Source: Candidatus Electronema halotolerans
GTDB lineage: Bacteria; Desulfobacterota; Desulfobulbia; Desulfobulbales; Desulfobulbaceae
Length of the DNA: 32,000 nt
Assembly (NCBI GenBank): GCA_942493095.1
Contig: OW818675.1
Location: 2,130,001-2,162,000, forward strand
Direction of reading: 5' to 3'
Shown here in pieces: positions 927-32,000 of the stretch (positions within the stretch are counted from its first letter, which is position 1; each line of letters starts with the position of its first letter). The notes beneath the pieces are model-generated. The model did no database searches. It saw only the letters and a program-made list of their open reading frames with translations, and was not told the DNA's origin. A program made the position numbers and the translations under genes.

Positions 927-1937
927 TCACATCAGTCCAAGCAGGAAGTTTTTCACACATTCTCCAAGAACATCAGTGTTATAACCACCTTCTTGGCATA
1001 CCAGTGTGGGTATTCCCAGGGCCTGAAACTGTTTGCCGATTGCAAAGTAATCTTCCGTGCCAAGGTTGAATCCCCCTATCGGATCCATTTCATGCGTGTC
1101 AAAACCGGCGGCAATAATAAGGTATGCAGGATTAAAAGTACGAATTTCAGAAAAAATACGATCTAATGCTGCGCTGTATTGTTCCAGTTGCGCACCTTTG
1201 GCTAAAGGCTCATTATAATTTGTTCCGACAGCCTGACCTTTGCCTCTTTCCTCGGCGTAGCCCCAAAAATACGGGTATTCATCATCAGGAGCACCATGAA
1301 CAGAGGCGGTGAATACAGATTTTATCTCATCAAAAAATTCCTGCGTTCCGTTTCCATGATGATAATCTATATCTACTATTGCCACTTTACCTTCAGGCAA
1401 CAGATACTCGGCAGCTGTAGCCACATTGTTGAAGTAGCAATAACCGCCAAACACACGGGGGCCTGCATGATGCCCGGAAGGTCTGCACAGGGCATATACC
1501 GTTTTTTCAAGGCCATCTCGAATCAATTCAGCACCTGTCAAGGCCGTTTCAGCAGAGGCCCGCGCCACTTCATAGGTTTTTCTTTTGATGGGAGTTACCG
1601 CATCAGTGCACCAAATTCCACCCCAGAGCGGTGAATCAGATTTTTTTCTAAGATGGGCGCCCTCGCCGGGAAAAAGATCAGGATAAAACTCCTCTTCATC
1701 GTTTTGCAAAGACAATGCTGTGTTCTTAATATAATCGTGATAGGGATGCAGGCGAGTGATGAATCGTTCTGGAAATGATTTTGCAGTAAGAAATTGAAAC
1801 CGCTCATCTGAACGAAGCACCTTCTTGATGGATTCAACGCGCTTTGGCGTATCTTTCACCTCGTAGGCTTCTGGTCCAAGCTGATACTTCCAATAGGGAT
1901 TATGCAGGCTGTCGTTATACTTTTCAATTACTTTCAT
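927..1937 (-). CDS. histone deacetylase-family amidohydrolase (acetylpolyamine/acetoin-utilisation type)
   Basis: Motifs PSGHHAG, GGYCYFNN, DIDYHHGNGTQ and GFDTHEMDP match the arginase/deacetylase-fold Zn site and catalytic His pair. Confidence 0.85.
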   Translation of the reverse strand: MKVIEKYNDSLHNPYWKYQLGPEAYEVKDTPKRVESIKKVLRSDERFQFLTAKSFPERFITRLHPYHDYIKNTALSLQNDEEEFYPDLFPGEGAHLRKKSDSPLWGGIWCTDAVTPIKRKTYEVARASAETALTGAELIRDGLEKTVYALCRPSGHHAGPRVFGGYCYFNNVATAAEYLLPEGKVAIVDIDYHHGNGTQEFFDEIKSVFTASVHGAPDDEYPYFWGYAEERGKGQAVGTNYNEPLAKGAQLEQYSAALDRIFSEIRTFNPAYLIIAAGFDTHEMDPIGGFNLGTEDYFAIGKQFQALGIPTLVCQEGGYNTDVLGECVKNFLLGLM

Positions 1938-4071: not shown

Positions 4072-4129
4072 TTATGACCCTCTTTGAAATGAACATTTCT
4101 TCAGCCAGTCGGGCTGATTCAAACTCCAG

Positions 4130-5377: not shown

Positions 5378-8031
5378 TGGCCCGCCTCCAGTAGTTCAGC
5401 AACAATTTTTGGCATGGCCTTGACCGCCTCTGGCAGCTTGTCCGCCATTGGCCCGCCAGCTTGGGCCATGTCCGGCCTGCCGCCGCCCTTGCCGCCAACT
5501 ATGGCCGCTGCCGCCTTGACAATGTCGCCAGCCTTAATTTTACCGGTCAAATCTTTGCTGACAATTGCGAGCAGGGCCGCCTTGCCATCCACCACGCCGC
5601 CGAGCAGAGCTGCTCCGCCACCCATTTTGTCGCGCACTTTGTCGCCGACCTCGCGCAGGGTCTTGGCTGAATCGAGCTTGAGCTGACCGCTGATCACCTT
5701 GATGCCGCTGACCTCAACTGCGCCTGCCAGCAAGGAATCCAAATCAGAAGACGCTGCCGCCGCGCTCAGGGCAGCCAGCTCCTTTTCCAGCTCCTTCTGC
5801 CGCTTGAGCAGGTTTGGCACCTTGACGAGCGCATCTTCAAAGGAGCCGGAAAGCATTTTGCCCAGCTCATCGGCCTGCGCAGCCAGCTTTTGCAGCCAGT
5901 CAATCGCTGCCGGGCCAGTGACCGCCTCAATCCGGCGCACCCCAGCGGCAATGCCGGTTTCGGAAATAATCTTGAACAGGCCGATGTCGCCGGTAGCTCC
6001 GGTGTGGGTGCCGCCGCAGAGTTCCTTGGAAAAGCCGGGAATGCTCACCACCCGCACCTCGTCGCCGTATTTCTCGCCAAACAGAGCAGTTGCGCCTTCA
6101 GCAATCGCCTGCTCTTTGGCCAGCACCGCTGTTTGCACCGGCGTGTTGCGGCGGATTTCCTGATTCACAAGCTGCTCAATGGCCCGGATTTCCTCCGGCG
6201 TGACCGGCGAAAAATGGGTGAAGTCAAAGCGGAGGCGGTCAGCGCGAACTAACGAGCCTGCCTGCTTGACATGGCTGCCAAGGACTTGCTTCATGGCTGC
6301 GTGGAGCAGATGAGTGGCCGTATGATTCAAGGCTGTGGCAGTGCGCTGCTCATCCACTTGCAAGATGACTTCTTGACCAGCACTCAGCACGCCTTGCGTG
6401 ATTGTGCCGCTGTGCAGCACCAGTCCCTCGGCAGCCGCCTTGACCGAATGCACAGTCAGCTTGCCACCCGGCCATGTCATCGTGCCGCTGTCGCCGACCT
6501 GTCCGCCGGATTCAGCGTAGAACGGGGTCTGCGGACAGAAAACCTGCACTTGCGCTCCAGCGGTCGCCCGGCTGATCAAGCTGCCTTGGTTGTCGAGAAT
6601 GCCCTCAGCCACACTCTCCGCACTTCGTTGTTTATAGCCAAGAAACTCGCTTTTCTTGCCCTGCTCCAGCAGATTGATCACGCCAGCAGAGAAATGATCC
6701 AAGTCCTTAGCTTTCCACGAGCGGCGCGACTGTTCACGCTGCTCCTGCATGGCCGCTTCAAAGCCTGCGTCATCTAAACCAATGCCATGCTCCAAGGCCA
6801 CATCACGGACAATATCTTTTGGAAATCCGTAGGTGTCATAGAGTTTGAAGATGAAATCGCCGTTGATCACTGGGCGTTCAGGCTGTTCACCCAAAACCCG
6901 TTGAATTTCCTCATCCAGCATGGCCAAGCCCTTGTCCAGCGTCTCGCCAAAGCGACTCTCCTCGTGATCCGTCACCTTGTCCAAGAGCTGGCTGGAGTCA
7001 GGCAGATGCGGATACGCCTCGCGCATGGTGCGCACCACTTCCCGGCAGACCTCGCCAAAGAAGGGGCCATTCAAGCCCAGTGTCCTGCCAAAGCGGATAG
7101 CCCGGCGCATGACCCGGCGGAGCACATAGCCCCGCCCTTCATTCGAGGGCAGGACTCCGTCCGCAACCAGAAAGGCCGCAGCGCGGGCATGATCGGCAAT
7201 GACCCGCATGGCCGTGTCATCAGCACGATTCTCGTGATATTTCTTGCCGGAAAGCCGCTCCACCGTGCTGATCAGCGGGGCAAAGACATCGCTGTCAAAG
7301 TTGTTGTATTTGCCTTGCAAGACTGCCGCCACCCGCTCCACGCCCATGCCGGTGTCAATCGAAGGCTTGGGCAGCGGGGTCAAAGTGCCGTCCAAGGAGC
7401 GGTAGAACTGCATGAAGACCAGATTCCACAGCTCAAGGAAGCGGTCACAGTCGCAGCCAATGGCACATTCCGGCCTGCCGCAGCCGTGCTCCGCGCCCTG
7501 ATCAAGGTGAATCTCAGAGCAGGGGCCGCAGGGGCCGGTGTCGCCCATTGCCCAGAAATTGTCTTTCTCGCCAAGGCGGACAATGCGGCCTTTGGGCAAA
7601 TCCTCAATCTGCTCCCAGAGTTCCTGCGCCTCGTCGTCGTCGCGAAAAATCGTGATCCAAAGCCGCTCTGGGCTGATAGCCAGTTCTTTGGTCAGAAATT
7701 CCCAGGCAAAGGCGATGGCCTCTTTCTTGAAATAATCGCCAAAGGAAAAATTGCCGAGCATCTCAAAGAAGGTATGGTGCCGGGCAGTATGGCCGACGTT
7801 TTCCAAGTCGTTGTGCTTGCCGCCAGCCCGCACACAGCGTTGGCAGGAGACCGCCCGGACGTACTCGCGGTGCTCCTCGCCCATGAAAATCCGCTTGAAC
7901 TGGAACATGCCCGCGTTGGTGAAAAGCAGGGTGGGATCGTCATGCGGGACGAGCGAGGATGATTCGACGATGGTATGCCCTTTGCTGGCAAAGTAGTTGA
8001 GAAATTTTTCTCGCAGCTGATTTCCAGTCAT
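5374..8031 (-). CDS. alaS: alanine--tRNA ligase
   Basis: Full-length AlaS similarity: FTNAGMxQFK, the editing-domain HxxxH motif (HTATHLLH), CGGTH and a C-terminal DHHA1 region. I place the start at internal ATG 8031 (MTGNQLREKFL...). The upstream 37 codons of the tracked ORF run into a palindromic repeat. Confidence 0.95.
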   Translation of the reverse strand: MTGNQLREKFLNYFASKGHTIVESSSLVPHDDPTLLFTNAGMFQFKRIFMGEEHREYVRAVSCQRCVRAGGKHNDLENVGHTARHHTFFEMLGNFSFGDYFKKEAIAFAWEFLTKELAISPERLWITIFRDDDEAQELWEQIEDLPKGRIVRLGEKDNFWAMGDTGPCGPCSEIHLDQGAEHGCGRPECAIGCDCDRFLELWNLVFMQFYRSLDGTLTPLPKPSIDTGMGVERVAAVLQGKYNNFDSDVFAPLISTVERLSGKKYHENRADDTAMRVIADHARAAAFLVADGVLPSNEGRGYVLRRVMRRAIRFGRTLGLNGPFFGEVCREVVRTMREAYPHLPDSSQLLDKVTDHEESRFGETLDKGLAMLDEEIQRVLGEQPERPVINGDFIFKLYDTYGFPKDIVRDVALEHGIGLDDAGFEAAMQEQREQSRRSWKAKDLDHFSAGVINLLEQGKKSEFLGYKQRSAESVAEGILDNQGSLISRATAGAQVQVFCPQTPFYAESGGQVGDSGTMTWPGGKLTVHSVKAAAEGLVLHSGTITQGVLSAGQEVILQVDEQRTATALNHTATHLLHAAMKQVLGSHVKQAGSLVRADRLRFDFTHFSPVTPEEIRAIEQLVNQEIRRNTPVQTAVLAKEQAIAEGATALFGEKYGDEVRVVSIPGFSKELCGGTHTGATGDIGLFKIISETGIAAGVRRIEAVTGPAAIDWLQKLAAQADELGKMLSGSFEDALVKVPNLLKRQKELEKELAALSAAAASSDLDSLLAGAVEVSGIKVISGQLKLDSAKTLREVGDKVRDKMGGGAALLGGVVDGKAALLAIVSKDLTGKIKAGDIVKAAAAIVGGKGGGRPDMAQAGGPMADKLPEAVKAMPKIVAELLEAGQ

Positions 8032-8188: not shown

Positions 8189-8746
8189 TTATTTCAAATA
8201 CGGCAACATGGCCTTGAAGGCCGGAGTGCCTGCTTTGTGGAGAAATTCATAGATGAGCATCTCTGCCGGAGCCAGCACCGCGCCGATCTCCCGCAGCCGC
8301 TGCTGGCCGTAAGCGTGATTTTCCGGGGTGCGCGAGGAAATGGCATCCGCAACCACCTGCACCTCGTAGCCCTCTTGCAGTGCCCCGACAGCGGTCTGCC
8401 AGATGCAAATATGGCTTTCCACGCCGCAGAGCAGCAAGGTTTGCACTGAGGCGGGCAGATGATTGAGCAGCCGCTTCATGCCCGGATTCGCAACGGCGTT
8501 GAACTCAGTTTTATCGACACAGGGCTTGTCAGCAAGCAGCCCGGCCAGCTCCGGCACAAAAGGGCCAATGCCTTTTTTGTACTGGGTGCAGGCTAAAACC
8601 GGAATGCCCAGCACCTCGGCCAGGCGCAGCATCAGGCTGATATTTCTGCTCACCCGCCCCGCCTCATGGATATGCGTCATCAGGCGTTCTTGCGGGTCTA
8701 TCACCAGCAGGCAGCATTCCCGCGACAGGAGAGTTCCGGTGTTCAT
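8189..8746 (-). CDS. isochorismatase-family cysteine hydrolase
   Basis: CLLVIDPQE (Asp), a conserved Lys region and LLLCGVESHICIWQTA (catalytic Cys context). The start is set at MNTGTLL (ATG 8746) rather than the longer tracked ORF. Confidence 0.8.
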   Translation of the reverse strand: MNTGTLLSRECCLLVIDPQERLMTHIHEAGRVSRNISLMLRLAEVLGIPVLACTQYKKGIGPFVPELAGLLADKPCVDKTEFNAVANPGMKRLLNHLPASVQTLLLCGVESHICIWQTAVGALQEGYEVQVVADAISSRTPENHAYGQQRLREIGAVLAPAEMLIYEFLHKAGTPAFKAMLPYLK

Positions 8747-8995
8747 GTCATGCTCAGGCTGAAGTTGATGGTCAAACGGCCCTTTTCTTTTAGTGGGCGG
8801 CGGAAGAATTTGCAACAGAAAAACGCCCAGCGGGCAAACGTGCCGCAGCGCAGCATACTCTATTTTGGGGCAAAGTGGAAGAGGTCAGGGCCGCTGCTGA
8901 AAAACTTGTTGAATCAAATGAAAATTTCCATCATCATTAGGAGAAGGTTAGCGAACAGTCAGCGGAAGGTTAAAATTCACCCCACAGGGAGCATT

Positions 8996-10699
8996 ATGGA
9001 TACTTCTATAGATATTTGGAGATTAGCAGCAGGGCTGTCGGTGTTTCTCTACGGCATGTTTCTGCTGGAGGATGCTGTCAAAATCATGTCAGGCCGGGCT
9101 TTCCGCCGGATGATCCGGCTTTATACGGATGGCCGCATCCGTTCCATCGGCAGCGGCACCTTGGTCACGGCCATTCTTCAGTCCAGCTCGGCAGTCTCGC
9201 TCATGGTGCTGGCCTTTGTCGGCGGCGGCGTGATGAGCATGGAAAACGGCATCGGCGTGCTGATGGGGGCCAATATCGGCACCACCTTCACCGCGTGGAT
9301 TGTCGCCGCCTTTGGATTCAAAGTGAAGATTGAAACTCTGGCTTTTCCGGTGATAGCCTGCGCCGGACTGATCTTCGCAGTGGCCAATCCCTCCTCAAAA
9401 ATTTTTCAGGCCAGCAGACTGCTGATCGGCTTCGGCTTTCTCTTTCTTGGTCTCGATTTCATGAAAAGCAGCGTGGAGACTTTTGCCGAACATGTTGATC
9501 TGAGTGCAATTGCCGGTTACGGGGTATGGATATATCTGGTCTTTGGCACAGCCATGACCGCCCTGATGCAGGCGAGTGCCGCCGCCATCGCGGTCATTCT
9601 CACCGGCCTGTACAGCGGCCTGCTCGACTTTGAAACTTCCTTGGCTATGGTGATCGGAGCCAACATCGGCACCACAGTGACTGTGCTGCTCGGAGCCATT
9701 GGCGGCACTCCCCCGAAAAAACGGGTGGCAGCCAGTCATCTTGTCTTCAATCTGATCACCGGTGCTGTCGCCTTTGCCGCTCTCCATCCTTTGGCCGAAT
9801 TTGTCGGTCTGTTTTTCAAGATTCCTGACAACGCGGTGATGGGGCTGGCTCTTTTTCATACAATATTCAATGTAATAGGTGTCTTGATCTTTTTTCCCTT
9901 TGTCGGCCTGCTGGCCCGCTTTCTGATGCGATTTTTTCCAGACCGGAAAGAAATTCTCACCGTCTATCTTAACAATGATCCAACAGAGGTTCCAGAAGAG
10001 GGCGCGGAGGCACTGCGCAAGGAAATACTCCATCTTCTTGAGGAATGCCAGCTCTATGCGCTCAGAACCTTTGGCATTGACGACAAATTGGTTTTTGACC
10101 GCCTGCTGCCTTTTGAAAAAAATTTTGGCAAATGCACCCTGCCGGATTTTTACGACCGGGTCAAGCTCCTGCATGGTGAGATTGTTGAGTTTTATGCCAA
10201 ACTGCTCCAGGTGAATTTGGAAAAAGATGAGACCAAGGATTTGGAACGGATCATCTACGCCTCCCGCAACGTGATGAACTCTGTAAAAAATATCAAAGGA
10301 ATCCGGCATAACATCGGGGAATTTGACAGCTCGGACAACGAGCATCTGAACCAGCAGTACCGGCTTTTCCGCCGTCGGCTGATCAGCTTGTATCACCGGG
10401 TCAACAGCTTTCTGGTCCTGAAGGATCAGGAGAAGCAGCACCAGAGCCTGCTGAAAATGGCCATGCAGATTGAAGAGGAGGACAAGCGGTTTGTCAGCAC
10501 CGTCATGAAGCTGGCAGCGGAAAAAAACATCCATGAGCTGGAAATCTCCTCCCTGCTCATGGCCAACCGTCTCTTCAGCCAGTCCTGCCGTCTCCAAGTC
10601 TTTGCCCTCAAGGACCTGCTGCTCAAGGAAAAAGAAATCAGCGACTTTGACCGGGCTATGGATGCCAAAGAAACGCCGCAGGAGGCACAGGGAAAATGA
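8996..10699 (+). CDS. Na+/phosphate cotransporter family protein (NptA-like with C-terminal PhoU-like helices)
   Basis: Duplicated motif (A)ILQSSSA...GANIGTT appears at both halves, with multiple TM segments. The start is placed at MDTSIDIW (ATG 8996). Confidence 0.85.
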   Translation: MDTSIDIWRLAAGLSVFLYGMFLLEDAVKIMSGRAFRRMIRLYTDGRIRSIGSGTLVTAILQSSSAVSLMVLAFVGGGVMSMENGIGVLMGANIGTTFTAWIVAAFGFKVKIETLAFPVIACAGLIFAVANPSSKIFQASRLLIGFGFLFLGLDFMKSSVETFAEHVDLSAIAGYGVWIYLVFGTAMTALMQASAAAIAVILTGLYSGLLDFETSLAMVIGANIGTTVTVLLGAIGGTPPKKRVAASHLVFNLITGAVAFAALHPLAEFVGLFFKIPDNAVMGLALFHTIFNVIGVLIFFPFVGLLARFLMRFFPDRKEILTVYLNNDPTEVPEEGAEALRKEILHLLEECQLYALRTFGIDDKLVFDRLLPFEKNFGKCTLPDFYDRVKLLHGEIVEFYAKLLQVNLEKDETKDLERIIYASRNVMNSVKNIKGIRHNIGEFDSSDNEHLNQQYRLFRRRLISLYHRVNSFLVLKDQEKQHQSLLKMAMQIEEEDKRFVSTVMKLAAEKNIHELEISSLLMANRLFSQSCRLQVFALKDLLLKEKEISDFDRAMDAKETPQEAQGK

Positions 10700-21370: not shown

Positions 21371-21451
21371 GAACAGCAACCACTTGAAACAATGCGCTGT
21401 TCTGTGTTATAAAGCATAGTTCACTGCCGCACAGGCAGCTTACTGAAAAAA

Positions 21452-23124: not shown

Positions 23125-23173
23125 AAAATGAGCTGCCCGCCTCATTGTCCGGGCAGCCCTTCCTGAGTACAAT
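23125..23173 (+). promoter_or_regulatory. copy A of shared operator/promoter motif
   Basis: AAAATGAG-CTGCCCGC-CTCATTGTCC-N17-TACAAT. The palindrome AATGAG-N8-CTCATT overlaps a -35-like TTGTCC, and the -10-like TACAAT is at 23168-23173. Confidence 0.45.
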
Positions 23174-23214
23174 GCTCCCTCAAAATCCTGTCCGAATCCG
23201 AATCATGATTGCTC

Positions 23215-24057
23215 ATGACCGCCATTGCCTTTGCCCAGAGCCGCCCGCCCAATGCCATGCTGCTGGCAGGCAGCATCCTCTGCGTGCTGCTCCTGCTTGT
23301 CTGCCTGCTGGGCGCACGGCTGGCCCCATACGACCCGCTCGCCCTTGACCTGAGCCAGCAGCTAGCTCCGCCCTCTGCCACCCACCTCTGCGGCACCGAT
23401 CAGCTGGGCCGCTGCGTCCTGTCGCGGCTGCTCTGCGGAGCGCGGAACTCCTTAGCCTCTGCACTGGCCGCCGTGGGACTCAGCCTGAGCATCGGCCTGC
23501 CGCTCGGCTTTCTCGCCGGACTGAGCACCCGGCGCATCGACCGCCTGCTCATGGCCATCTGCGATGTGGTGCTGGCCTTCCCTTTCCTCATCCTCGCCTT
23601 GGCCCTGACCGCAGCTCTTGGCCCGTCCCTGCGCAGCCTGATCCTTGGCGCAGGACTGGCGGGCTGGGCGTGGCAGACCAAGTTCATCCGGGGCATGGCC
23701 CTTGATGCCAAGGACAAGGACTTTGTCCGCCAAGCCAAGGCAATGGGCCTGACCCGCCCTGCCCTGCTGCGCCGCTGCATCCTGCCCCAGCTCCTGCCGC
23801 CGCTCTTGGTCAGCACCTCCCTCAGCGCGGGCCGGATGATCGTGGTCATCTCCAGCCTCAGCTATCTGGGTCTGGGCATTCAGCCGCCCCAGCCGGAATG
23901 GGGCGTGATGCTGCGCGAGTCCATGCTGCATATTGCCGCTGCGCCGTGGCTGGCGATTGCTCCGGGCGCGGCAGCCAGCCTGTCAGTGCTGGCCTTCACC
24001 CTGCTCGGCGAGGGCTTGAAAGACTGGTTCCAGATACGGCCTGTTCATGCTGCTTGA
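23215..24057 (+). CDS. ABC transporter permease, NikC/DppC/OppC type
   Basis: N-terminal ...LAPYDP motif, six TM segments and an EAA-like loop (FVRQAKAMGLTRPALLRRCILPQ). The ATG at 23215 is preferred over the TTG at 23209. Confidence 0.85.
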   Translation: MTAIAFAQSRPPNAMLLAGSILCVLLLLVCLLGARLAPYDPLALDLSQQLAPPSATHLCGTDQLGRCVLSRLLCGARNSLASALAAVGLSLSIGLPLGFLAGLSTRRIDRLLMAICDVVLAFPFLILALALTAALGPSLRSLILGAGLAGWAWQTKFIRGMALDAKDKDFVRQAKAMGLTRPALLRRCILPQLLPPLLVSTSLSAGRMIVVISSLSYLGLGIQPPQPEWGVMLRESMLHIAAAPWLAIAPGAAASLSVLAFTLLGEGLKDWFQIRPVHAA

Positions 24058-24829
24058 AGTGGACAGGCTTTGCATCGGCTTGGGCAACGGGGCAAGGCGG
24101 ATTGTCGATGAGGTCAGCTTCAGGCTGGAGCGCGGCTCCTGCTTCGGCCTGCTGGGCGAGAGCGGCACTGGCAAGACCCTGCTCGCCTATGCCCTCTGCG
24201 GCCTGCTCAGTCCGCCGATGCAGGTGCTGGACGGCACAGTCCGCTTTGCTGGCGAGACGCTCCTGCCCGGCCCGCAGAGGAAGCTGGCCTGTCTGCGGGG
24301 CCGCCACATCTTCATGATGTTCCAGAGCGCGGCGGCGGCCCTCAATCCCTACCTGACCATTGGCAAACAGATTGCCGAAGCCTTGCAGACCACCCGGCGG
24401 CTCTCAGGCAGGGCGGCCTTGCGCGAGGCAGGCGCGCTGCTGGAGCGGGTCGGCCTGCGCAGCGAGCTGGTCAGTGCCCATCCCTTCCAACTGAGCGGCG
24501 GCATGCAGCAGCGGGTTCTGATCGCCATTGCCCTTGGCCTGCATCCGCAAGTCCTGATTGCCGACGAGCCAACCACCGGCCTGGACGCGCTCTCCTCCCT
24601 GCGCATTCTGGAGCTGCTCCAAAGCCTGAAGGAGGAGGGCATGGCCATCCTCTTCATTTCCCATGACCTGAAGGCCATTGCCCTGCTTGCTGACCAAGCT
24701 GGCGTGATGCGGCAAGGGCGGCTGGTCGAAACCGGCCCGCCTGCCCAGCTCCTGACTGCGCCCAAGCATCCCTGCACCCGTGAGCTGATGGAGGCGGTTC
24801 AGCGGCTGGAGGCCTGGCCGCCCGCATAG
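24047..24829 (+). CDS. ABC transporter ATP-binding protein, NikD/DppD type
   Basis: Walker A GESGTGKT, signature LSGGMQQR, Walker B LIADEPTTGLD and H-loop SHD. It overlaps the upstream permease by 11 nt. Confidence 0.9.
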   Translation: MLLEVDRLCIGLGNGARRIVDEVSFRLERGSCFGLLGESGTGKTLLAYALCGLLSPPMQVLDGTVRFAGETLLPGPQRKLACLRGRHIFMMFQSAAAALNPYLTIGKQIAEALQTTRRLSGRAALREAGALLERVGLRSELVSAHPFQLSGGMQQRVLIAIALGLHPQVLIADEPTTGLDALSSLRILELLQSLKEEGMAILFISHDLKAIALLADQAGVMRQGRLVETGPPAQLLTAPKHPCTRELMEAVQRLEAWPPA

Positions 24830-24847: not shown

Positions 24848-24896
24848 AAAATGAGGCGGCTGCCTCATTGTCCGGGCGGCAGGAATATGGTTTATT
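24848..24896 (+). promoter_or_regulatory. copy B of shared operator/promoter motif
   Basis: AAAATGAG-GCGGCTGC-CTCATTGTCC-N17-TTTATT, preceded by the small hairpin GGGCA-GTA-TGCCC (24832-24844). Confidence 0.45.
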
Positions 24897-25046: not shown

Positions 25047-26006
25047 ATGACAACAAGGCATGCCGCCATTCTCTTTCTCAAGCGTCTGGCCCGGATGGGC
25101 GGCATCCTGATCGGGGTGTCGCTGCTGACCTTTGTCCTGCTGGAGCTGGTGCCCGGCGATGCCGCAGACCTCCTCCTGAGCAGCCAGATGCAGACCGCCT
25201 CGCCTGCGCAGGCCGCCGCCCTTCGGCAGGAGCTGGCTCTGGACGCGCCCCTGCCGCTGCGCTATCTGCGCTGGCTGGGCCGGGCAGCGGTGCTGGACTT
25301 CGGCACCTCCATCCGCAGCGGCGAGCCGGTCAGCCGGGAAATACTCCGCTGCCTGCCTGTGACCATGACCCTTGCCCTGCTCACCTTCAGCTTTGCCGTG
25401 ACTGTCTCCGTGCTGGGCGGCATCATTGCGGCCCTGTTCGAGAAGCGTCTGCCGGACAGAGGCCACCGCCTGTTCGCCATTCTTGCCGTCTCCATTCCTG
25501 ACTACTGGCTGGGCCTGATGCTGCTCCTGCTCTTTGCCCTCAAGCTGGGCTGGCTGCCCGTGCTCGGCGGCAGCGGCCCTGAAGCCTTCATCCTGCCAGT
25601 GCTGGCCCTGGGCCTGTCTGCCGCTGCCGCCGAGGGCCGGGTCTTCCGGGCCAGCATCATTGCGACCTTGCAGCAGGACTGGGTGCTCTTTGCCCGCGCC
25701 AAGGGACTGCACCCGGCCAAAGTATGGCTGCGGCACGTGCTCCGCCCTGCCGCCCTGCCCATGCTCTCGGTCTGGGGCATGCAGCTAGGCCATCTGCTCG
25801 GCGGGGCCGTGGTGATTGAATCGGTCTTCTCCTTGCCCGGCTTAGGCAAGCTGGCAGCGGATGCGGTGCTCCAGCGCGACCTGCCCATGATTCAAGGCGC
25901 GGTGCTGGCCATGACCTGCTTCTTTATCCTTGCAAGCGGGGCGATGGAGAGCATCCATGCCCTGCTTGCCCCCAAGAATCGGCTGGCAATGGCTGACATG
26001 CCCTGA
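25047..26006 (+). CDS. ABC transporter permease, NikB/DppB/OppB type
   Basis: FLKRLARMGGILIGVSLLTFVLLELVPGD N-terminus and an EAA loop (FARAKGLHPAKVWLRHVLRPA) typical of DppB/NikB. Confidence 0.85.
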   Translation: MTTRHAAILFLKRLARMGGILIGVSLLTFVLLELVPGDAADLLLSSQMQTASPAQAAALRQELALDAPLPLRYLRWLGRAAVLDFGTSIRSGEPVSREILRCLPVTMTLALLTFSFAVTVSVLGGIIAALFEKRLPDRGHRLFAILAVSIPDYWLGLMLLLLFALKLGWLPVLGGSGPEAFILPVLALGLSAAAAEGRVFRASIIATLQQDWVLFARAKGLHPAKVWLRHVLRPAALPMLSVWGMQLGHLLGGAVVIESVFSLPGLGKLAADAVLQRDLPMIQGAVLAMTCFFILASGAMESIHALLAPKNRLAMADMP

Positions 26007-26030: not shown

Positions 26031-28046
26031 ATGATGAGGAACACAATCAAGCTGTCAGTGACAGCGGCGGCAGTGCTGCTGGCCGGGCCAGGCATGGCTC
26101 AGGATCAGCAGGAAACAGTGCGCACGCTCGATGAGGTGGTGGTCACGGCGACCAAGACTGAGCGGGAGCTGAAAGAGATTCCCACCAATATGGCCGTGGT
26201 CACGGCAGAGGAGGTTGAGCGGATTCAGCCGACCGACGCGATGGACCTGCTCCGCCATGTGCCGGGTCTGGTGCTGGACGGCATGGGCGGCAGCAAAGCC
26301 TCGTTCTATGCGGGCGCGCGCGGCATTCAGCCCTCCTCACGCGGCATGCTGATCATGATGGACGGGATTGAAATGAATGATCCCAGCAACTACATCTCAG
26401 CGGACAGCCTGCCTTTGGACTCCATCGAGCGGATTGAGGTGATCAAGACCCCGGCCTCAGTGCTCTACGGCCCGGCAGCGGTCGGTGGGGTGATCAACAT
26501 TATCACCAAGAAGCCGGTCAACCCGCTGGAAGGCAGTGCCAGCGTCGGCTATGGCTCCTTTGACCGCAAAGAGGCGACAGCGACAGTCAGCGGCCTGCTG
26601 GAGAATGGCTTCACTTACGGCCTCAACTACCGGGGCTTGGACACGGACGGCTATCGGGACAACAACTGGCGGCAGCAGAATGCCTTCACCCCGCGCCTCG
26701 GCTATCTCTCCGACGCAGTCGAGTTTGATGTCTTTGCCAATATTGTTGACGGCGAATACGCCTTCCCCGGCGGCCTGCCCTTGGCCACCTACAAGGATGA
26801 CCCGACCAAGTCGCTCCAGCCGGACCGCGAAGGCAATTCCACCACTGCCAACATCGGCTCGACTCTGAACTGGACCTTGGATGCGAGCAACATCCTCAAG
26901 TTCAAGACCTCCTACCGCAACAACGACTGGGAGACTGAGGACTACGGCTTCTTCTTCAAGGGCGATGACTACAATGTCTGGACAGGCGAGGCCGCCTATC
27001 AGAACCTGTCCGTGATCAACGGGATGAAGAACTCGCTCCTGCTTGGCACCGAATACCGGAGCCTGAACAACTCGCCTTCCATGTACATGGACGACCAGCA
27101 CGGCTCCATGCTCCTGAGTCAGGCCGAGATTGAGGAGCAGATCGCTGGTTTCTTTATTCAGGATGAGCTGTCGCCGGTCAGCAACCTGATGCTCAACCTT
27201 GGCGTGCGCTATGATCAGATTGACACGGACTTCAGCAACAAGCTCAAGCAGGAGGCCAGCTTTGACAACTCGCACGACAAATGGAGTCCGCGTCTCGGCC
27301 TGACCTACACAGTCGCGCCGGAGCTGTCCTTGTTCGCCAACTACTCGCAGGGCATCCGCTCGGTCAATCTGGCCCGGCCCGCCTTCCAGCTCAAGGGCAA
27401 CGTAAACCCGGAGACTGAGGAGAGCATTGAGGGCGGCATCCGGGGTCTGCTCGGCGGGGTGCTGGAATACAACGCGGCCTTGTTCCAAGTCACGACTGAG
27501 GACAAGATCATCCAGAAAGACCGCTATCTCTATGAGAACGCGGGCGAAGCCGAGTCCAAAGGCTTTGAGCTGGCTCTGAGCCGCGACCTGCCCGGCGGCT
27601 GTTATGCCTCGGCAGACTACACGTACATCAATGCTGAGTTCACCGACTACACCACTTCATCCACCACGCCGGAAGAGGCGGTCTCCTACAACGGCAAGCG
27701 CGTGCCCTTGGTGCCGGAGAACATCTTCGGCCTGACCTTGGGCTGGAAGAATCCGGTCTATGGCCACCTGAGCGGTTCGCTTCGTTACGTTGACGAGAAG
27801 TACATTGACAACGCCAACACCCTGAGCTTGGATGACTATGTGGTCGTGGATGCCAAGTATGTTGTCGGTCTGGGCGCGCTCCTGCCCGGCGCGGAGCCGT
27901 GGCAGTTCAGTCTGGCAGTCAACAACCTCTTTGATGAGACCTATGCTGAGTACGGCGAGGCGGACGGCGGCCTGTACGTGCCGGGGCCGGTCGCTTTCCC
28001 GGCAGATGGCGTGTCGGTGTTCGGCAGCATCAGCTATAAGTTCTGA
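26031..28046 (+). CDS. TonB-dependent outer-membrane receptor
   Basis: Signal peptide, TonB-box-like LDEVVVTAT, plug motifs (IPTNMAVVTAEE, DLLRHVPGL, IERIEVIKTPASVLYG) and a beta-barrel ending in terminal ...SISYKF. Confidence 0.9.
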   Translation: MMRNTIKLSVTAAAVLLAGPGMAQDQQETVRTLDEVVVTATKTERELKEIPTNMAVVTAEEVERIQPTDAMDLLRHVPGLVLDGMGGSKASFYAGARGIQPSSRGMLIMMDGIEMNDPSNYISADSLPLDSIERIEVIKTPASVLYGPAAVGGVINIITKKPVNPLEGSASVGYGSFDRKEATATVSGLLENGFTYGLNYRGLDTDGYRDNNWRQQNAFTPRLGYLSDAVEFDVFANIVDGEYAFPGGLPLATYKDDPTKSLQPDREGNSTTANIGSTLNWTLDASNILKFKTSYRNNDWETEDYGFFFKGDDYNVWTGEAAYQNLSVINGMKNSLLLGTEYRSLNNSPSMYMDDQHGSMLLSQAEIEEQIAGFFIQDELSPVSNLMLNLGVRYDQIDTDFSNKLKQEASFDNSHDKWSPRLGLTYTVAPELSLFANYSQGIRSVNLARPAFQLKGNVNPETEESIEGGIRGLLGGVLEYNAALFQVTTEDKIIQKDRYLYENAGEAESKGFELALSRDLPGGCYASADYTYINAEFTDYTTSSTTPEEAVSYNGKRVPLVPENIFGLTLGWKNPVYGHLSGSLRYVDEKYIDNANTLSLDDYVVVDAKYVVGLGALLPGAEPWQFSLAVNNLFDETYAEYGEADGGLYVPGPVAFPADGVSVFGSISYKF

Positions 28047-28096
28047 GGCGGGGGCAGTGACAGGAACCTGTCGCTCTCAGAGATAGGAGGCATGAA

Positions 28097-28251
28097 CGGT
28101 TCGTACATGCAGACATGTACGAACCGCGCAAGGAGAGATGAACGGGCCGCACATGTCTCCTTGTGCTGCCCAGTACATGGAGACATGTGCTGGCAGGCTT
28201 TGTTTGGCACGAACAACCCTCTGCAGGGGCGAAAAATTTTTCGTCCCTACG
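28097..28251. repeat. cluster of long perfect hairpins
   Basis: CGGTTCGTACATG-caga-CATGTACGAACCG (28097-28126, 13-bp stem). GCACATGTCTCC...GGAGACATGTGC (28149-28190, 12-bp stem). AGGGGCGAAAAATTTTTCGTCCCT (28225-28248, 12-bp palindrome with one G-T). Confidence 0.7.
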
Positions 28252-28274
28252 CCTGCCGCGCTGCTTGCACTCCA

Positions 28275-28412
28275 GTGTGACGAACGGTTGCACCAGAGTG
28301 CAACGGAAACTTCCACTCTCGTGCAACGCATCATAGTACTCTCGTGCGACGGTGGATACTTCGAGAGTGCAACGGCAGATACTTCTCTCGTGCAAGTTGC
28401 GGTTCCACTCCA
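28275..28412. repeat. six degenerate 23-nt tandem direct repeats
   Basis: GTGCAAC-like heads occur at 28275 (GTGTGAC), 28298, 28321, 28344 (GTGCGAC), 28367 and 28390 (GTGCAAG), spaced exactly 23 nt. Consensus is about GTGCAACGG-N7-ACTTC/CTCTC. Confidence 0.7.
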
Positions 28413-28471
28413 GTGGAAGCAGCGGGCGCACTATCCACGCCATCCTGTCCTTTCGGTCGCAGGGAGAAATC

Positions 28472-29665
28472 TCAGAGCCGGGACGAAGGAGATTCCTCCC
28501 GTTGGTCGGAATGACGGAGATATTTGTGGGCGTAGGCATAAATAAGCGCGTGACTCCACGGCCAGTATTTGTCCTGTCTCTCCAGTAGACCGTAATTAAC
28601 CAACTCATGCAACGCCTTGCGTGCCCTGTATTCATCGCCATCAAGATGAGCAGTTACCCGCTCATAGGTCAACCACGCACCTCCTCCCCACATAAAAGTA
28701 CCCCAATCGGCTTCACCCCATTTCACCGGCGTTCCCATCAATCCCAGCGCAAGTCGGGCATCATCACTGACCTGCCCTATGCTGCGCCGCAGAAGCAGGA
28801 CGGCATTCTCCTCCTCGTCCTCACCCAGCTCCTTGAACGGCTCCTGCTCCAGCCAGCGCAAGTAGTCTGCCGTATCTTCGCACATATTTCTGATATAGCA
28901 ACCGGCAATCCGCAGACCAACCGGCCAGCCGCCCAGTATCTTGCAGATGCCCTGTACGCTCTCGTCATCCGCCGCCGCACCGCTGTGCAGCCGGAAAACC
29001 TCTGCCGCAAACTGCTCCTCCAGCGGCCTGACCTGGAGCAGCTCGCCCCGCGCATCCGACCGCTTCCGGCTGGTGATCAGCACCCCGCAGCCGCCGCGCA
29101 CTTTGAGCAGAGCAGACAGGTCATCAGCCTCCTCTGCCCCGTCCAAAATCAGCAGCACCTGCTTGCCAGCCAGCAGACGGCGGGCCGCGTCCGGGCTGAC
29201 ATCCTGCTGCTGCTCGTCATAGCTGCGCACGACATGGGCAAGGGCCTCTTCAGCAGTATGCTTGCCATAAAAGGAGTAGAAGATGATGCCGTCCGGGAAG
29301 CGGTCAGGGGCTTCCTTGCCGGATGCCAGCGTCCAGACGGCCTGCGCTGCCAGAGCGGTCTTGCCCATGCCGCCCGGCCCGCAGAGCGTGACTGCCTTGC
29401 CCGGCTGGAGCAACGGCAGCAGCTCCTCCAGCACCGCATCCCTGCCCCGGAAGTGCTCGGCCAAAGGAGGCCGTTGCAGGGGAATGCCTTGGGCGGTGCG
29501 CGGGTAATGGTGGTGATGCTTTTCATAGCGGACATTGCCGGTTTGACTGAAGACGTTGCCGTTGCCCGTTACATGCTGTGTGTTGTTCTCCTGCTTGCCA
29601 ATGGCATTGTCTCCCTGAGCACTGTTCTGCTCGCCGCTGCCGGTGTTGGTGAAGGTGTCGCCCAT
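28472..29665 (-). CDS. NB-ARC / STAND P-loop NTPase
   Basis: Walker A GPGGMGKT, Walker B VLLILDGAEE, sensor-like ITSR and a GLPL-like GGWPVGL motif. The N-terminus is a Gly/Asn/Gln-rich tail with HHHH. The start at 29665 has GGAGGA upstream. The last about 30 codons read into a hairpin repeat. Confidence 0.75.
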   Translation of the reverse strand: MGDTFTNTGSGEQNSAQGDNAIGKQENNTQHVTGNGNVFSQTGNVRYEKHHHHYPRTAQGIPLQRPPLAEHFRGRDAVLEELLPLLQPGKAVTLCGPGGMGKTALAAQAVWTLASGKEAPDRFPDGIIFYSFYGKHTAEEALAHVVRSYDEQQQDVSPDAARRLLAGKQVLLILDGAEEADDLSALLKVRGGCGVLITSRKRSDARGELLQVRPLEEQFAAEVFRLHSGAAADDESVQGICKILGGWPVGLRIAGCYIRNMCEDTADYLRWLEQEPFKELGEDEEENAVLLLRRSIGQVSDDARLALGLMGTPVKWGEADWGTFMWGGGAWLTYERVTAHLDGDEYRARKALHELVNYGLLERQDKYWPWSHALIYAYAHKYLRHSDQREESPSSRL

Positions 29666-29775
29666 GTCTCCTCCATCAGGTTGAATGTGTTCAGCAATGC
29701 TCCCCAGCATACCCGAAGAGCAGCAGCTTGCGCACTGGAAATCTGCCGCCGGGCAAGGCAGGCGATATGCCCGGC

Positions 29776-29824
29776 AAAATGAGACCTCCGCCCTATTGTC
29801 CGGGCAGCATCATTCTGCTATGCT
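29776..29824 (+). promoter_or_regulatory. copy C of shared operator/promoter motif
   Basis: AAAATGAG-ACCTCCGC-CCTATTGTCC-N17-TATGCT, preceded by the hairpin CCGGGCA...TGCCCGG (29749-29774). Confidence 0.45.
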
Positions 29825-29952
29825 TGCTTGAATTGGTAAATCCAGCGGTCCCCCACGGCACTGCCGCCGCTGGCCAATAAAACAGCTTACCCCGGCGGTC
29901 TGCAATTCCGCAGGCCGCTGCCTTTAAAACCTTTCAACACAAGGTGATTGAA

Positions 29953-30150
29953 ATGGCTGTACACGCAGAAGTTCTCAAGCCCGAAGCATCCTACAACGCT
30001 GCTCCTGATGCCTGCTGCCACGGCGGCGCTTATCAGGCTGCCCCCTGCGCCTGCTGTCATGGCGGCGCATACCAAGCTGCTCCTGATGCCTGCTGTCATG
30101 GCGGTGCCTATCAGGCTGCTCCGGCTGCCTGCTGCCACGGCGGCGAGTAA
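29953..30150 (+). CDS. RiPP precursor peptide with four tandem ACCHGG cassettes
   Basis: AAGGTG lies 6 nt upstream of the ATG. Sequence: MAVHAEVLKPEASYNA-(APDACCHGGAYQA)(APCACCHGGAYQA)(APDACCHGGAYQA)(APAACCHGGE). The cassettes differ mostly by synonymous codons. It sits directly upstream of the E1-like and YcaO genes. Confidence 0.75.
   Translation: MAVHAEVLKPEASYNAAPDACCHGGAYQAAPCACCHGGAYQAAPDACCHGGAYQAAPAACCHGGE
30001..30147 (+). repeat. 3.75 x 39-nt in-frame tandem repeat (coding cassettes)
   Basis: gctcctgatgcctgctgccacggcggcgcttatcaggct, gccccctgcgcctgctgtcatggcggcgcataccaagct, gctcctgatgcctgctgtcatggcggtgcctatcaggct, gctccggctgcctgctgccacggcggcgag. Confidence 0.9.
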
Positions 30151-30152
30151 TC

Positions 30153-30207
30153 GTTTCAGGTTGACCTGAAACAAGAAACGGGAGCCTGCCTGGAGCAGGT
30201 TCCCGTT
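30153..30207 (+). promoter_or_regulatory. two stable stem-loops immediately after the precursor stop (possible processing or attenuation site)
   Basis: GTTTCAGG-ttga-CCTGAAAC (30153-30172, 8 bp). AACGGGAGCCTGC-ctgga-GCAGGTTCCCGTT (30177-30207, 13 bp with one G-T). No U-tract follows. Confidence 0.45.
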
Positions 30208-30228
30208 GCCAAAAAGAGGTGCGCAAAG

Positions 30229-30315
30229 ATGCTGGCTGGCAGCAGAAGTTCTCAAGCCCGAGTCTTTGGCTGTACCGCATCCTGCGCCTGCCACCTCTGC
30301 CCCCGCAGAGAATGA
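30229..30315 (+). CDS. possible second short Cys/His-rich precursor (28 aa) or decayed paralogue of the first
   Basis: AGAGGTG lies 7 nt upstream of the ATG. Sequence MLAGSRSSQARVFGCTASCACHLCPRRE. Nucleotide homology to the first precursor covers ATG..GCAGAAGTTCTCAAGCCCGA and GCATCCTGCGCCTGCCAC, but the leader part is shifted by 1 nt. Confidence 0.35.
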   Translation: MLAGSRSSQARVFGCTASCACHLCPRRE

Positions 30316-30376
30316 CAGGAGGCCATCTGACGATGGCCTGCACCTCTCCCCTCAGCATACTCCCCCCGAACTCATT

Positions 30377-31279
30377 ATGCAAAGCACTTTTTTGCAGCTG
30401 CGCCGCTGCCGCCGGATACCGGTGCAGGAAAATAAAGTCCTGCTCAAGTCGGCGGACAAGTCGCTGGCTCTTGCTGCGGACAATATTCATAACCTGCTGG
30501 ACAGCCTGCTGCCTCTGCTGAACGGAACCTCCACGGAAAAAGAAGTGCTGGCCGCTCTGGTGCCGGAACTGAAGGAGGATGCGGCAGAGGTGCTCCGGCT
30601 CTTGGGCAAGGAAGGCTTCTTGGAGACTGGCGCGGAACCGGCCAAGCAGCTGGCTCAGTCCCTGATTATCCTGATCAGCACTGGGCGGCTGGGTGAGACC
30701 ATGTCCCGGCATCTGCGTCAATCCGGTGCGGAGCAGGTCGAGGAGATCGATGCCGAGAGCGCGGCGGGCGGGCACCTGCCTGACTCGCTGCAACAGGCAG
30801 CTATGGTTGTAGTCTGCACCGACCTGCCAAGGCCCGACCTCTGCGAGGCAGTCAACAAGGCGGCCTTGACCCTCAAGCTGCCGTGGCTGCTGGTTCAGGC
30901 TGACGGCAGAGACGGCTGGGTTGGGCCGCTGTTCATTCCCGGCGAGACCGGCTGCTACGACTGCCTGCGCCAACGACTGCTCTCCTGTTCAGTCAGCCCG
31001 GAGATCGACCAAGCCATCCATGCTGCCGCCCTGCGCCAGCCCTTCACGGAGAGTCTGGAACTGCTGCCGCCCTTCCTTGACCTGCTGGCAGCAATGGCTG
31101 CGCTCGAAGCCATCCGCCACCTGAGCGCAGTCAGCCCGCCGCTCACTTACAAGACCCAGATTCTGCTTGACTGCATCAGCGGCATTTCCCGCCGCGATGT
31201 GCTGCATCGGATTCCCCGTTGCCCAAGCTGCTCAACCAGCAGCGAGCAGGTCTCCCCAATCCAGCCTTTCAGCGGGTGA
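30377..31279 (+). CDS. E1-like (ThiF/Ocin-ThiF-like) cyclodehydratase partner with N-terminal RRE-like leader-binding region
   Basis: The N-terminus (VQENKVLLKS...LLDSLLPLLNGTSTEKEVLAAL) resembles a PqqD-like RRE. A central degenerate Rossmann-like segment is present, plus PGETGCYDCL and RCPSC Cys pairs typical of E1-like TOMM 'C' proteins. The frame stays open back to TTG 30206. Confidence 0.7.
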   Translation: MQSTFLQLRRCRRIPVQENKVLLKSADKSLALAADNIHNLLDSLLPLLNGTSTEKEVLAALVPELKEDAAEVLRLLGKEGFLETGAEPAKQLAQSLIILISTGRLGETMSRHLRQSGAEQVEEIDAESAAGGHLPDSLQQAAMVVVCTDLPRPDLCEAVNKAALTLKLPWLLVQADGRDGWVGPLFIPGETGCYDCLRQRLLSCSVSPEIDQAIHAAALRQPFTESLELLPPFLDLLAAMAALEAIRHLSAVSPPLTYKTQILLDCISGISRRDVLHRIPRCPSCSTSSEQVSPIQPFSG

Positions 31280-31284
31280 CTGCC

Positions 31285-32000
31285 ATGATGAGCGATTTGC
31301 AGATTGCCCCGTGGCAGCGCGGGCAGGAAACGATCTTGGATGCGTTTGTCAGCTCCCGCTTGGGGCCGGTGAAGAAGCTGCAGGAGCTGACCCGCGAGCC
31401 GGACGCGCCGGATATCTTCAGCTATGTGTCCGAGGTCTGCGACCGGACTCAGTTCCATTTTCAGCAGGGCGGCAAGGTCAGCACCGGCATTGGCATCACC
31501 CGCTTTCATGCCCGCACTGCCGCCATCGGTGAATGCTTGGAACGCTACGCGGCCAGCATGTATGACCGGGACAAGGATGTCATCCTCGCCACCTGGAAGG
31601 AAATGATTGGGCAGGGGTTGCGGACTGCCCACCCGGAGGACTTCGGCCTTTACTCGGAAGCCCAGTATCAACGGCATACGTATCTCAACCGCTTCACTGA
31701 GAACACCCGCATTGGCTGGGCCAAGGCCGTCTGCCTGACTGACAGCAATGCGGAGGTCTGGCTGCCTGCCGCCTTCGTCTTTCTGCCCTATCAGTACATG
31801 GCAGGCGAGACCCAAATCTCTTCGCAAATCTCCACTGGCCTGTCCGCCGCATTTGACTTGGACACGGCTGTCATGGGCGGCATCTGTGAGATTGTGGAGC
31901 GGGAAGCGGTGATGCTGACCTGGCTCCACCGCCTGCCCTGCCCAGAGCTGCGCTTCAGCCCGGACTGCTGGTTCAGCGAAGTGTTCCAGCAACGCTTTGC
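31285..32000 (+). CDS. YcaO-domain cyclodehydratase (N-terminal 238 aa; continues beyond the window)
   Basis: My translation gives MMSDLQIAPWQRG...GGKVSTGIGITRFHARTAAIGECLERYAAS...SSQISTGLSAAFDLDTAVMGGICEIVEREAVMLTW. This matches the YcaO signature blocks (G-x-G..A...A.GE.lERY and S.GlA......A...g..E..ERDa). It is absent from the ORF track because it is open at the window end. Confidence 0.8.
   Translation, partial: MMSDLQIAPWQRGQETILDAFVSSRLGPVKKLQELTREPDAPDIFSYVSEVCDRTQFHFQQGGKVSTGIGITRFHARTAAIGECLERYAASMYDRDKDVILATWKEMIGQGLRTAHPEDFGLYSEAQYQRHTYLNRFTENTRIGWAKAVCLTDSNAEVWLPAAFVFLPYQYMAGETQISSQISTGLSAAFDLDTAVMGGICEIVEREAVMLTWLHRLPCPELRFSPDCWFSEVFQQRF

Follow-up and report, generated by a model that had tools for sequence, protein, structure and literature searches.

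Linear azol(in)e-containing peptides (LAPs), also named thiazole/oxazole-modified microcins (TOMMs), are peptides that are synthesized on ribosomes and modified after translation (RiPPs). In the described LAP/TOMM clusters (McbABCD, SagBCD, plantazolicin, heterocycloanthracin), a small Cys-rich precursor is accompanied by a C protein with E1-like and RiPP recognition element (RRE) domains, a separate YcaO-type D protein, a SagB-type B protein and an efflux pump. Microcin B17 provides a precedent for tandem heterocycles formed from adjacent residues. Another peptide, methanobactin, is encoded by an operon that comprises the MbnA precursor, modifying enzymes, the TonB-dependent transporter (TBDT) MbnT, the OppA-like MbnE and the exporter MbnM (PMC7558416). 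For cable bacteria, in which the acquisition and handling of nickel is an open question, a recent genomics study described a TBDT, called undefined, whose gene lies directly upstream of a Nik/Opp/Dpp operon with an Opp1A/CntA-like component; the system was exclusive to cable bacteria within the Desulfobulbales, was put forward as a putative nickel importer, and was listed for Ca. En. halotolerans (BMC Genomics 2024, PMC11247825). That study left the ligand of the transporter open, offering an orphan receptor and transporter, and did not mention the precursor, YcaO, E1-like, SagB, major facilitator superfamily (MFS) and methyltransferase genes that we discuss below.

Here we describe a locus at the 3´ end of a 32,000-nucleotide stretch of the genome of Candidatus Electronema halotolerans, a member of the Desulfobulbaceae (GenBank assembly GCA_942493095.1, contig OW818675.1, positions 2,130,001 to 2,162,000 of the forward strand; hereafter the window, with positions counted from its first letter). 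Its gene content leaves us confident that it is a linear azol(in)e RiPP cluster of the TOMM/LAP type, with the 5´ half inside the window, and we think that the predicted peptide may well act as a metallophore, embedded in a co-regulated island for the uptake of metal chelates. As a more tentative extension, the cluster could make the first YcaO-type RiPP metallophore. This product would then be the nickelophore so far missing in cable bacteria, as the ligand of their specific TonB receptor and Nik/Opp importer, which would supply nickel for the Ni-bis(dithiolene) conductive fibres in sulfidic sediment.

The precursor and its probable modifying enzymes

The precursor gene (29953..30150, + strand) is a 65-aa open reading frame (ORF) that begins with ATG behind the Shine-Dalgarno (SD) sequence AAGGTGA at 29941-29947. 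It encodes a 13-aa leader, MAVHAEVLKPEAS, followed by four 13-aa cassettes of the form [AS]-Y-[QN]-A-A-P-x-A-C-C-H-G-G. Every cassette contains ACCHGG, with the CCH codons beginning at 30013, 30052, 30091 and 30130, and Tandem Repeats Finder reports a 39-nt period in 3.8 copies across 29998-30145. The consensus from 51 cassettes in 14 genes is [AS]-Y-[QN]-A-A-P-[CA]-A-C-C-H-G-G: the Pro, both Cys, the His and the first Gly are invariant in 51/51, the aromatic residue is Tyr or Phe, and many cassettes carry a third Cys. The number of cassettes per precursor differs by lineage, from 2 to 4, while the cassette itself is fixed, which points to the cassette as the functional unit.

Among 11 precursor orthologues, the proportion of synonymous differences (pS) is 0.37-0.92 and that of nonsynonymous differences (pN) is 0.007-0.09, for a pN/pS of ~0.05-0.1. 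Taken alone, the window precursor shows the same degree of constraint as its orthologues (pN 0.03-0.09, pS 0.48-0.74). Judged by this substitution pattern, the ORF is a real gene under strong purifying selection. Scans with hidden Markov models (HMMs) found no matching NCBIfam or Pfam family, and a Pfam Galaxin_repeat match (23.4 bits, cutoff 28) was rejected as an artefact of composition. The gene also exposes an annotation gap: in the closed genome of Ca. Electronema aureum (OW818638.1, locus L021), the precursor at 8521-8883 was not called, and a 120-aa ORF on the opposite strand (8714-9076) was called instead.

The next intact gene, at 30377..31279 (+), encodes a 300-aa TOMM C protein with an RRE-like N-terminal domain and an E1/ThiF-like domain. 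It passes the models for the TOMM precursor leader peptide-binding protein (TIGR03882, 65.6 bits, cutoff 36.9) and for ThiF (PF00899, 33.8 bits, cutoff 28.1), and has two CxxC pairs, GCYDC (30950-30964) and RCPSC (31217-31231). It is 100% identical to an NCBI protein of Ca. E. halotolerans, and NCBI names it a 'bacteriocin biosynthesis cyclodehydratase domain-containing protein'. The ORF was modelled with AlphaFold, with a mean predicted local distance difference test score (pLDDT) of 60.9; scores of 70-90 are reached by a beta3-alpha3 RRE-like region at model residues 61-135 and by the E1-like core in its first half, whereas its C-terminal part lies mostly below 50. Foldseek searches with this model gave LynD and TruD as the best matches (E ~1e-16), followed by MccB and McbB.

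The C gene is followed at 31285..32000 (+) by a gene for a YcaO D cyclodehydratase, cut at the window end after the first 238 of 427 aa. The part in the window scores 122.5 bits against PF02624, and the full-length protein, read from a contig identical to the window (L001), passes TIGR03604 SagD with 235.7 bits (cutoff 219.25). The ATP/Mg motifs GECLERY (31528-31548) and EIVEREA (31888-31908) align with those of the heterocyclase MusD. In L001 and in the related locus L019, the C-terminus reads ...NLKPHPFG (PxPxG) and aligns with TruD and LynD through the last residue. A first-pass annotation, made from the letters of this DNA, had proposed a precursor ORF with a good SD, a short leader and four CCHGG cassettes, an E1-like protein with an RRE-like N-terminus and paired CxxC motifs, and a YcaO-domain protein, and all of these were found in the searches described here.

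Beyond the YcaO gene, L001 continues with an MFS_3 transporter gene, whose named relatives include EntS and Mef pumps, a gene for a 220-aa SagB-like protein, and the start of a second TonB-dependent receptor gene (L001 11129-11806), which in Ca. E. halotolerans lies directly after sagB. A dehydrogenase, a protease and an exporter, if any, had been placed beyond the window; the SagB-like and MFS genes are candidates for the first and the last, and a protease gene was found in none of the loci. The SagB homologue scores 63.6 bits against TIGR03605, under the cutoff of 78.4, and those of the related loci L003 and L024 pass with 128 bits and keep both an R..PS.G..YP segment and a Lys-Tyr pair. The segment, 14 aa long, is missing from the SagB proteins of the window, E. 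aureum, L019 and L023 lineages (compared genes: L001 10398-11060, L021 12478-13158, L019 4583-5278, L023 10186-10878). In the pair, His replaces Tyr in L001 and L021, both from Electronema, and the Tyr is present in L003, L024, L019 and L023. These differences suggest that FMN-dependent oxidation was lost in these lineages while the gene was retained. Since the SagB protein of this lineage looks FMN-deficient, the product may carry either thiazolines or thiazoles.

A degenerate second copy of the precursor (30229..30315, +) lies between the precursor and the C gene, with a leader-like repeat, GCAGAAGTTCTCAAGCCCGAG, at 30242-30262. The 28-aa ORF at these coordinates reads MLAGSRSSQARVFGCTASCACHLCPRRE, and the SD-ATG at 30229 puts the leader-like stretch out of frame. 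At the equivalent position, loci L019 and L023 each carry a tandem pair of intact precursor genes. In Electronema, the leader-like GCAGAAGTTCTCAAGCCCGAG of the second copy is near-invariant, the core is decayed, and the frameshifts differ by lineage. We treat the ORF as a pseudogene remnant of a duplicated precursor, and not as an independent family. The small Cys/His ORF noticed in the first-pass annotation thus exists, but as a decayed duplicate rather than a separate family.

The start codon of C lies 135, 141, 120, 120, 126 or 117 nt after the leader-like segment (30242-30376 in the window), a multiple of 3 in 6/7 cases; the exception is L025, with 145 nt, and frameshifting indels lie within the interval. 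The frame that joins the segment to the C protein is open in the window and in L006, L009, L020, P0035 and P0037, and some gene calls give N-extended C proteins starting ..AEVLKPE... A natural cis-leader fusion, in which this second AEVLKPE-like segment would extend the C protein as in the engineered leader-fused LynD, is a possible reading that we found unsupported and regard as improbable. L008 has a stop, L025 is out of frame, and the sole SD-ATG of the window is in another frame; the 13 substitutions between the window and L006 have no codon-position bias, and AlphaFold gives the N-terminal extension a pLDDT of ~30. We flag the conserved frame between the leader-like segment and the C start as unexplained.

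The conserved uptake module and its shared promoter motif

About 12 related loci were found, and all named members are cable bacteria or Desulfobulbaceae metagenome-assembled genomes: besides the window these are Ca. E. aureum, Desulfobulbaceae UBA5173 and, as a relative of the C protein, Ca. Electrothrix sp. AUS3. Relatives of the precursor form 4 clusters among 5.8 billion protein clusters, with 2, 3, 3 and 4 cassettes, and an exhaustive profile search of 1.84 billion representatives gave no additional small peptide. A degenerate DNA pattern for two cassettes matched 3 of 185,579 species genomes, of which Ca. Electronema aureum and Desulfobulbaceae UBA5173 are true and the third, in a Pro/Gly-rich gene of Streptomyces, was dismissed as a chance match. 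In metagenomes, the same pattern recovered 3 true loci, the other 8 of 11 matches being unrelated Cys/His-rich proteins. The YcaO proteins form a tight clade of 11 clusters with at least 46% identity, and the nearest outgroup (35% identity) belongs to a different clade and lies in a thiopeptide-like cluster. A precursor with CCHGG cassettes adjoins every homologous C/D pair for which upstream DNA is available, so that the association between small ORF and YcaO clade, which the first-pass annotation had proposed to check, holds in all of these.

Gene order was judged from the loci with enough DNA (L003, L019, L021/L022, L023 and L024). The module reads TonB receptor, precursor (one or two), C, D (YcaO), MFS_3, SagB, methyltransferase, SBP_bac_5 binding protein, and OppBCDF and/or a second TonB receptor. 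The precursor-adjacent receptor (TBDT1), MFS, SagB, methyltransferase, SBP_bac_5, OppB and OppC proteins are orthologous across loci, with identities that track those of YcaO, which argues that the transporters were inherited with the biosynthetic genes and are not mere neighbours. For the SBP_bac_5 protein, the best named relatives are NikA, CntA-type proteins and nickel or metallophore binding proteins.

In the window, uptake genes lie upstream of the precursor on the same strand. They encode an OppC/NikC-like ATP-binding cassette (ABC) permease (23209..24057, +; BPD_transp_1 and OppC_N; 48-55% identity to OppC of L003 and L024), an OppD/NikD-like ABC transporter ATPase (24047..24829, +; ABC_tran), an OppB/NikB-like ABC permease (25047..26006, +; 71% identity to the orthologue from Ca. 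E. aureum, 51% to that from L003) and TBDT1 (26031..28046, +). The receptor has plug and barrel domains, passes TIGR01783 with 240 bits (cutoff 223.5), and is 54-76% identical to the precursor-adjacent receptors of L003, L005, L021, L023 and L024. A gene for the binding protein was not seen within the window.

Three operons share a promoter-operator motif, AAATGAG-N8-CTCATTGTCCGGGC, which matches the window 3 times, with 0 matches expected from shuffled sequences. Copy 1 (23126..23154, +) lies upstream of the OppC-like gene, copy 2 (24849..24877, +) upstream of the genes for the OppB-like permease and the TonB receptor, and copy 3 (29777-29805) upstream of the precursor, where motif and operon promoter together span 29777..29825 (+). 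Each copy overlaps the -35 hexamer of its operon; the 3´ part of the motif forms the hexamer, and a TA...T box follows 17 nt further on. Copy 1 includes the -35 TTGTCC, with the -10 TACAAT ending at 23173 (promoter-like site 23145-23173), and by analogy with this site we assigned the -35 TTGTCC at 29797-29802 and the -10 TATGCT at 29820-29825 to copy 3. The motif and a TAT..T box are kept 5´ of the precursor in three other lineages (L006, L008 and L009). The presence of one motif before three operons, together with its conservation in these lineages, argues for a single regulon. A repetitive extragenic palindromic (REP) element or a terminator was rejected as an explanation of this palindromic motif, since copy 3 lacks the stem, yet keeps the sequence and the -35/-10 spacing.

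The precursor gene is also flanked by potential RNA structures. A 5´ UTR hairpin, GGCGGTCTGC-aattcc-GCAGGCCGC (29894..29918, +), lies just 5´ of the SD and forms a nearly invariant block across 4 lineages. Two hairpins (30153..30205, +), at 30153-30172 and 30179-30205, follow the stop codon; the second stem is retained in 4 lineages with 3 compensatory pairs, and in L009 a T-run follows it. The pair is likely to be a terminator or attenuator that keeps the precursor mRNA above the enzyme mRNA. Rfam searches gave no match for the conserved 5´ UTR and intergenic blocks, hence no known riboswitch or other RNA was recognized there.

A lineage-specific insertion of 1.9 kb separates the TonB receptor gene from the precursor in the window. 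It includes hairpin-rich, ~23-nt tandem repeats and palindromes (28050-28470) and, on the - strand, a gene for a 412-aa STAND (signal transduction ATPase with numerous domains) NTPase of the NACHT/NB-ARC type without the usual C-terminal repeats (28472-29710). Ca. E. aureum and UBA5173 have no such insertion, and there the precursor lies directly 3´ of the receptor gene.

Several other features were noted in the surroundings of these loci. Just 5´ of the TonB receptor gene, L023 encodes a radical SAM/SPASM enzyme together with another MFS_3 transporter (891-3593), which may be a further peptide-modification module. L003 has a divergent second set (1-7265), comprising an AraC-type regulator, a paralogous TonB receptor, SBP_bac_5 and OppBCD; this receptor has 47% identity to the precursor-adjacent one, and the set points to a duplication of the uptake system in that locus. 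In Ca. E. aureum, downstream of the cluster (L021 15870-21287), a second, unrelated TonB receptor is followed by FmdE, methyltransferase, Peripla_BP_2 and FecCD permease genes. Far from the cluster in the window, a lone Rfam CRISPR-DR4 match (21419-21448; 36.4 bits, cutoff 35) lies just 5´ of a threonine synthase gene and is probably a chance hairpin, since no repeat array surrounds it. In the region 927-4071 (-), a 715-aa protein that joins a D-Ala-D-Ala-ligase-like ATP-grasp domain to a peptidase domain of family S58 (DmpA) is encoded next to a gene of the histone-deacetylase family.

A proposed metallophore and its rivals

From what is seen directly, namely the gene content, its conservation, the synteny and the motif common to three operons, we infer a route of heterocyclization, export, metal binding and re-uptake. 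The 65-aa precursor, with its strong SD and the terminator-like hairpin after its gene, would be made in excess. The RRE of the C protein would bind the short leader (..EVLKPE..) and offer the ATP-dependent YcaO the four A-P-x-A-C-C-H-G-G cassettes, whose adjacent Cys the enzyme is predicted to cyclodehydrate to tandem thiazolines; these might then be oxidized to thiazoles by the SagB-like protein, a step that is uncertain in this lineage. In most relatives, the methyltransferase might then add a methyl group, a step whose gene is absent beside the Ca. E. halotolerans copy. The product would be exported by the MFS transporter, given its membership in the EntS family, and each bis-thiazol(in)e-His unit could chelate a metal ion of soft or borderline character. 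Because the synteny is conserved and the promoter-operator is shared, we suggest that the complex would be re-imported by the adjacent TonB receptor and the Nik/Opp-type ABC system.

A peptide of repeated soft ligands, an EntS-like exporter, a TonB receptor, a binding protein of the OppA/NikA family and a shared promoter together follow the logic of a metallophore system. A metallophore had already been guessed from the peptide alone, and the genomic context (the orthologous TonB receptor, the EntS-like MFS, the Nik/Opp importer and the shared motif) lends that guess independent backing. Which metal would be bound is a more speculative matter. Nickel is the leading candidate because cable bacteria need much of it for their conductive fibres and because the transporters have already been proposed as nickel importers; specificity for nickel is nonetheless a tentative suggestion, and Cu, Co and Zn are alternative candidates. 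The fibres of cable bacteria are built from a Ni-bis(dithiolene) framework, for which neither the biosynthesis nor the source of the nickel has been worked out (PMC13534509).

A number of observations weigh against the metallophore reading. The insertion between receptor and precursor and, unlike in L021, the missing methyltransferase and binding-protein genes next to sagB make the module look eroded in this genome; the second precursor is degenerate, the SagB homologue is sub-threshold and lacks the 14-aa segment, and YcaO ends in PHPFG, without the full PxPxP motif. A leader protease was found in none of the loci, and a product of ~50 aa would make a large cargo for a binding protein of the Opp type. 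The metal is suggested by the similarity of the binding-protein family and by the biology of the organism. In addition, the Nik/Opp/TBDT system is missing in some cable bacteria (PMC11247825; PMC12093952), which makes it an accessory system. Some of these points would also fit a cluster that is decaying and non-functional in Ca. E. halotolerans and functional elsewhere: the two genes lost beside sagB, the insertion, the frameshifted second precursor and the weak SagB score. We think this quite unlikely, since the precursor, C, D and MFS genes are intact, the window precursor is constrained like its orthologues, and the promoter motif is retained three times. Moreover, the SagB deletion is common to the E. 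aureum, L019 and L023 lineages, which marks it as old and tolerated.

A different product can also be imagined from the same genes. Characterized LAPs are mostly antibiotics. The locus could make a linear azole peptide with antibacterial action, comparable to microcin B17, klebsazolicin or phazolicin, with the MFS as export or immunity pump and the importers, for some nutrient or metal, as coincidental neighbours; its B/C/D enzymology is that of the antibiotic LAPs, an MFS pump is typical of such clusters, and the NCBI name of the C protein refers to bacteriocin biosynthesis. That the importers are there by coincidence is hard to reconcile with orthologous TBDT, binding-protein and permease genes that accompany the cluster down to 46-54% protein identity between lineages, or with a promoter-operator motif shared by the importer operons and the precursor operon. 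A producer would have no reason to retain an importer for its own toxin, and the repeated Cys-Cys-His resembles sets of ligands, not a target-binding surface. We therefore give an antibiotic role a small chance. The peptide might instead buffer or detoxify metal, being exported to the periplasm or the medium to sequester excess Cu, Ni or Zn, in a role like that of bufferins. Four predicted chelating units per peptide and an exporter would suit such a role, as would the lack of a protease to free small diffusible units; cable bacteria also handle high periplasmic nickel (PMC11247825). The precursor has no signal peptide, though, the MFS_3/EntS family is typical of siderophore export, and the conserved TonB receptor and ABC importer indicate uptake rather than sequestration alone, so we consider buffering a doubtful reading.

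We also weighed a link to the fibres, in which the modified peptide would be a periplasmic nickel chaperone, a building block or a scaffold for the assembly of the Ni-bis(dithiolene) framework. Members of the family were seen only among cable bacteria and near relatives of these, Cys-Cys pairs abound in the peptide, and the biosynthesis of the Ni/S complex of the fibre is unknown (PMC13534509). YcaO/E1 chemistry yields azolines, not dithiolenes, and a TBDT with an ABC importer implies a round trip outside the cell. Further, the transporter system is absent in conductive species such as Ca. E. gigas and YB6 (PMC11247825; PMC12093952), and genome surveys indicate that species without the cluster appear to form normal fibres with a normal content of nickel. 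The lack of the transporter system in some conductive species makes a role in fibre assembly unlikely, and even on a generous estimate we hold it to be very improbable.

Comparison with known systems

As a candidate metallophore cluster, the locus shares features with several described systems and coincides with none of them. Its enzymology is that of the LAP/TOMM clusters. It differs from these in its new precursor family of 13-aa repeats with an invariant Cys-Cys-His and a very short leader, in its tie to a TonB receptor and a Nik/Opp importer, and, in this lineage, in a B protein without the FMN motif. Among proteins of solved structure, C and D both come closest to the cyanobactin heterocyclases MusD, TruD and LynD. 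PatE-type precursors likewise have 2-4 core cassettes with a conserved spacer, and patellamide-type products bind Cu(II). Here, in contrast, C and D are separate genes rather than a fused heterocyclase of the PatD type, identity to the cyanobactin proteins is only ~25%, and the host is not a cyanobacterium but a member of the Desulfobulbaceae. Genes for PatA/PatG proteases, a macrocyclase or any peptidase were not found in L003, L021 and L023 (19-21 kb each). The cyanobactin-style release of four units suggested by the first-pass annotation is thus left unsupported, since none of the loci has a protease gene.

TfuA, a Lan-type dehydratase and a pyridine synthase were found in no locus, and MNIO/DUF692 MbnB and MbnC were not among the Pfam annotations of the loci. 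With no protease, TfuA, Lan-type dehydratase or MNIO in any of them, the system is not a cyanobactin, thioamitide, thiopeptide or methanobactin cluster, and it fits the definition of a LAP/TOMM. The precursor, as first suggested, falls outside the characterized RiPP classes: beside the lack of HMM matches, we found in the searchable literature no description of a CCHGG precursor, of a YcaO cluster of cable bacteria, or of a coupling of LAP, metal and TonB genes.

Opine metallophores (staphylopine with Cnt, pseudopaline with CntO/CntI) likewise combine a Nik/Opp importer and a CntA-like protein with an MFS/EamA exporter and, in Gram-negative bacteria, a TBDT, around a broad chelator of Ni, Co and Zn. 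The binding protein of cable bacteria has been placed beside Opp1A of S. aureus (PMC11247825). The chelator predicted here would be ribosomal and modified by YcaO, not an opine made by CntKLM. The nickel-import candidate of the same genomics study matches in its description the transporter genes of our loci, with a TonB receptor upstream of Nik/Opp/Dpp as in L003, and for that candidate the cluster offers a concrete, genetically encoded candidate ligand. Because the peptide and its enzymes amount to four small genes, heterologous production is feasible.

The methanobactin operon has the same logic as the cable-bacteria cluster, and the predicted ligands, heterocycle nitrogens and sulfur, would also be alike. 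The chemistry is unrelated: azol(in)es made by YcaO would replace the oxazolone-thioamide, four repeated units would replace one site, and the cable-bacteria binding protein is no near relative of MbnE (its matches do not include 5ICQ). In sum, the enzymology is canonical, and the searchable literature has no account of this precursor family, of its confinement to cable bacteria or of YcaO chemistry coupled to an island for metal uptake. The RiPP field would gain a new precursor family with repeated Cys-Cys-His cassettes. If the metallophore proposal is true, YcaO azol(in)e chemistry would here serve for the first time to acquire metal instead of for antibiosis, a parallel to methanobactin reached along an unrelated path.

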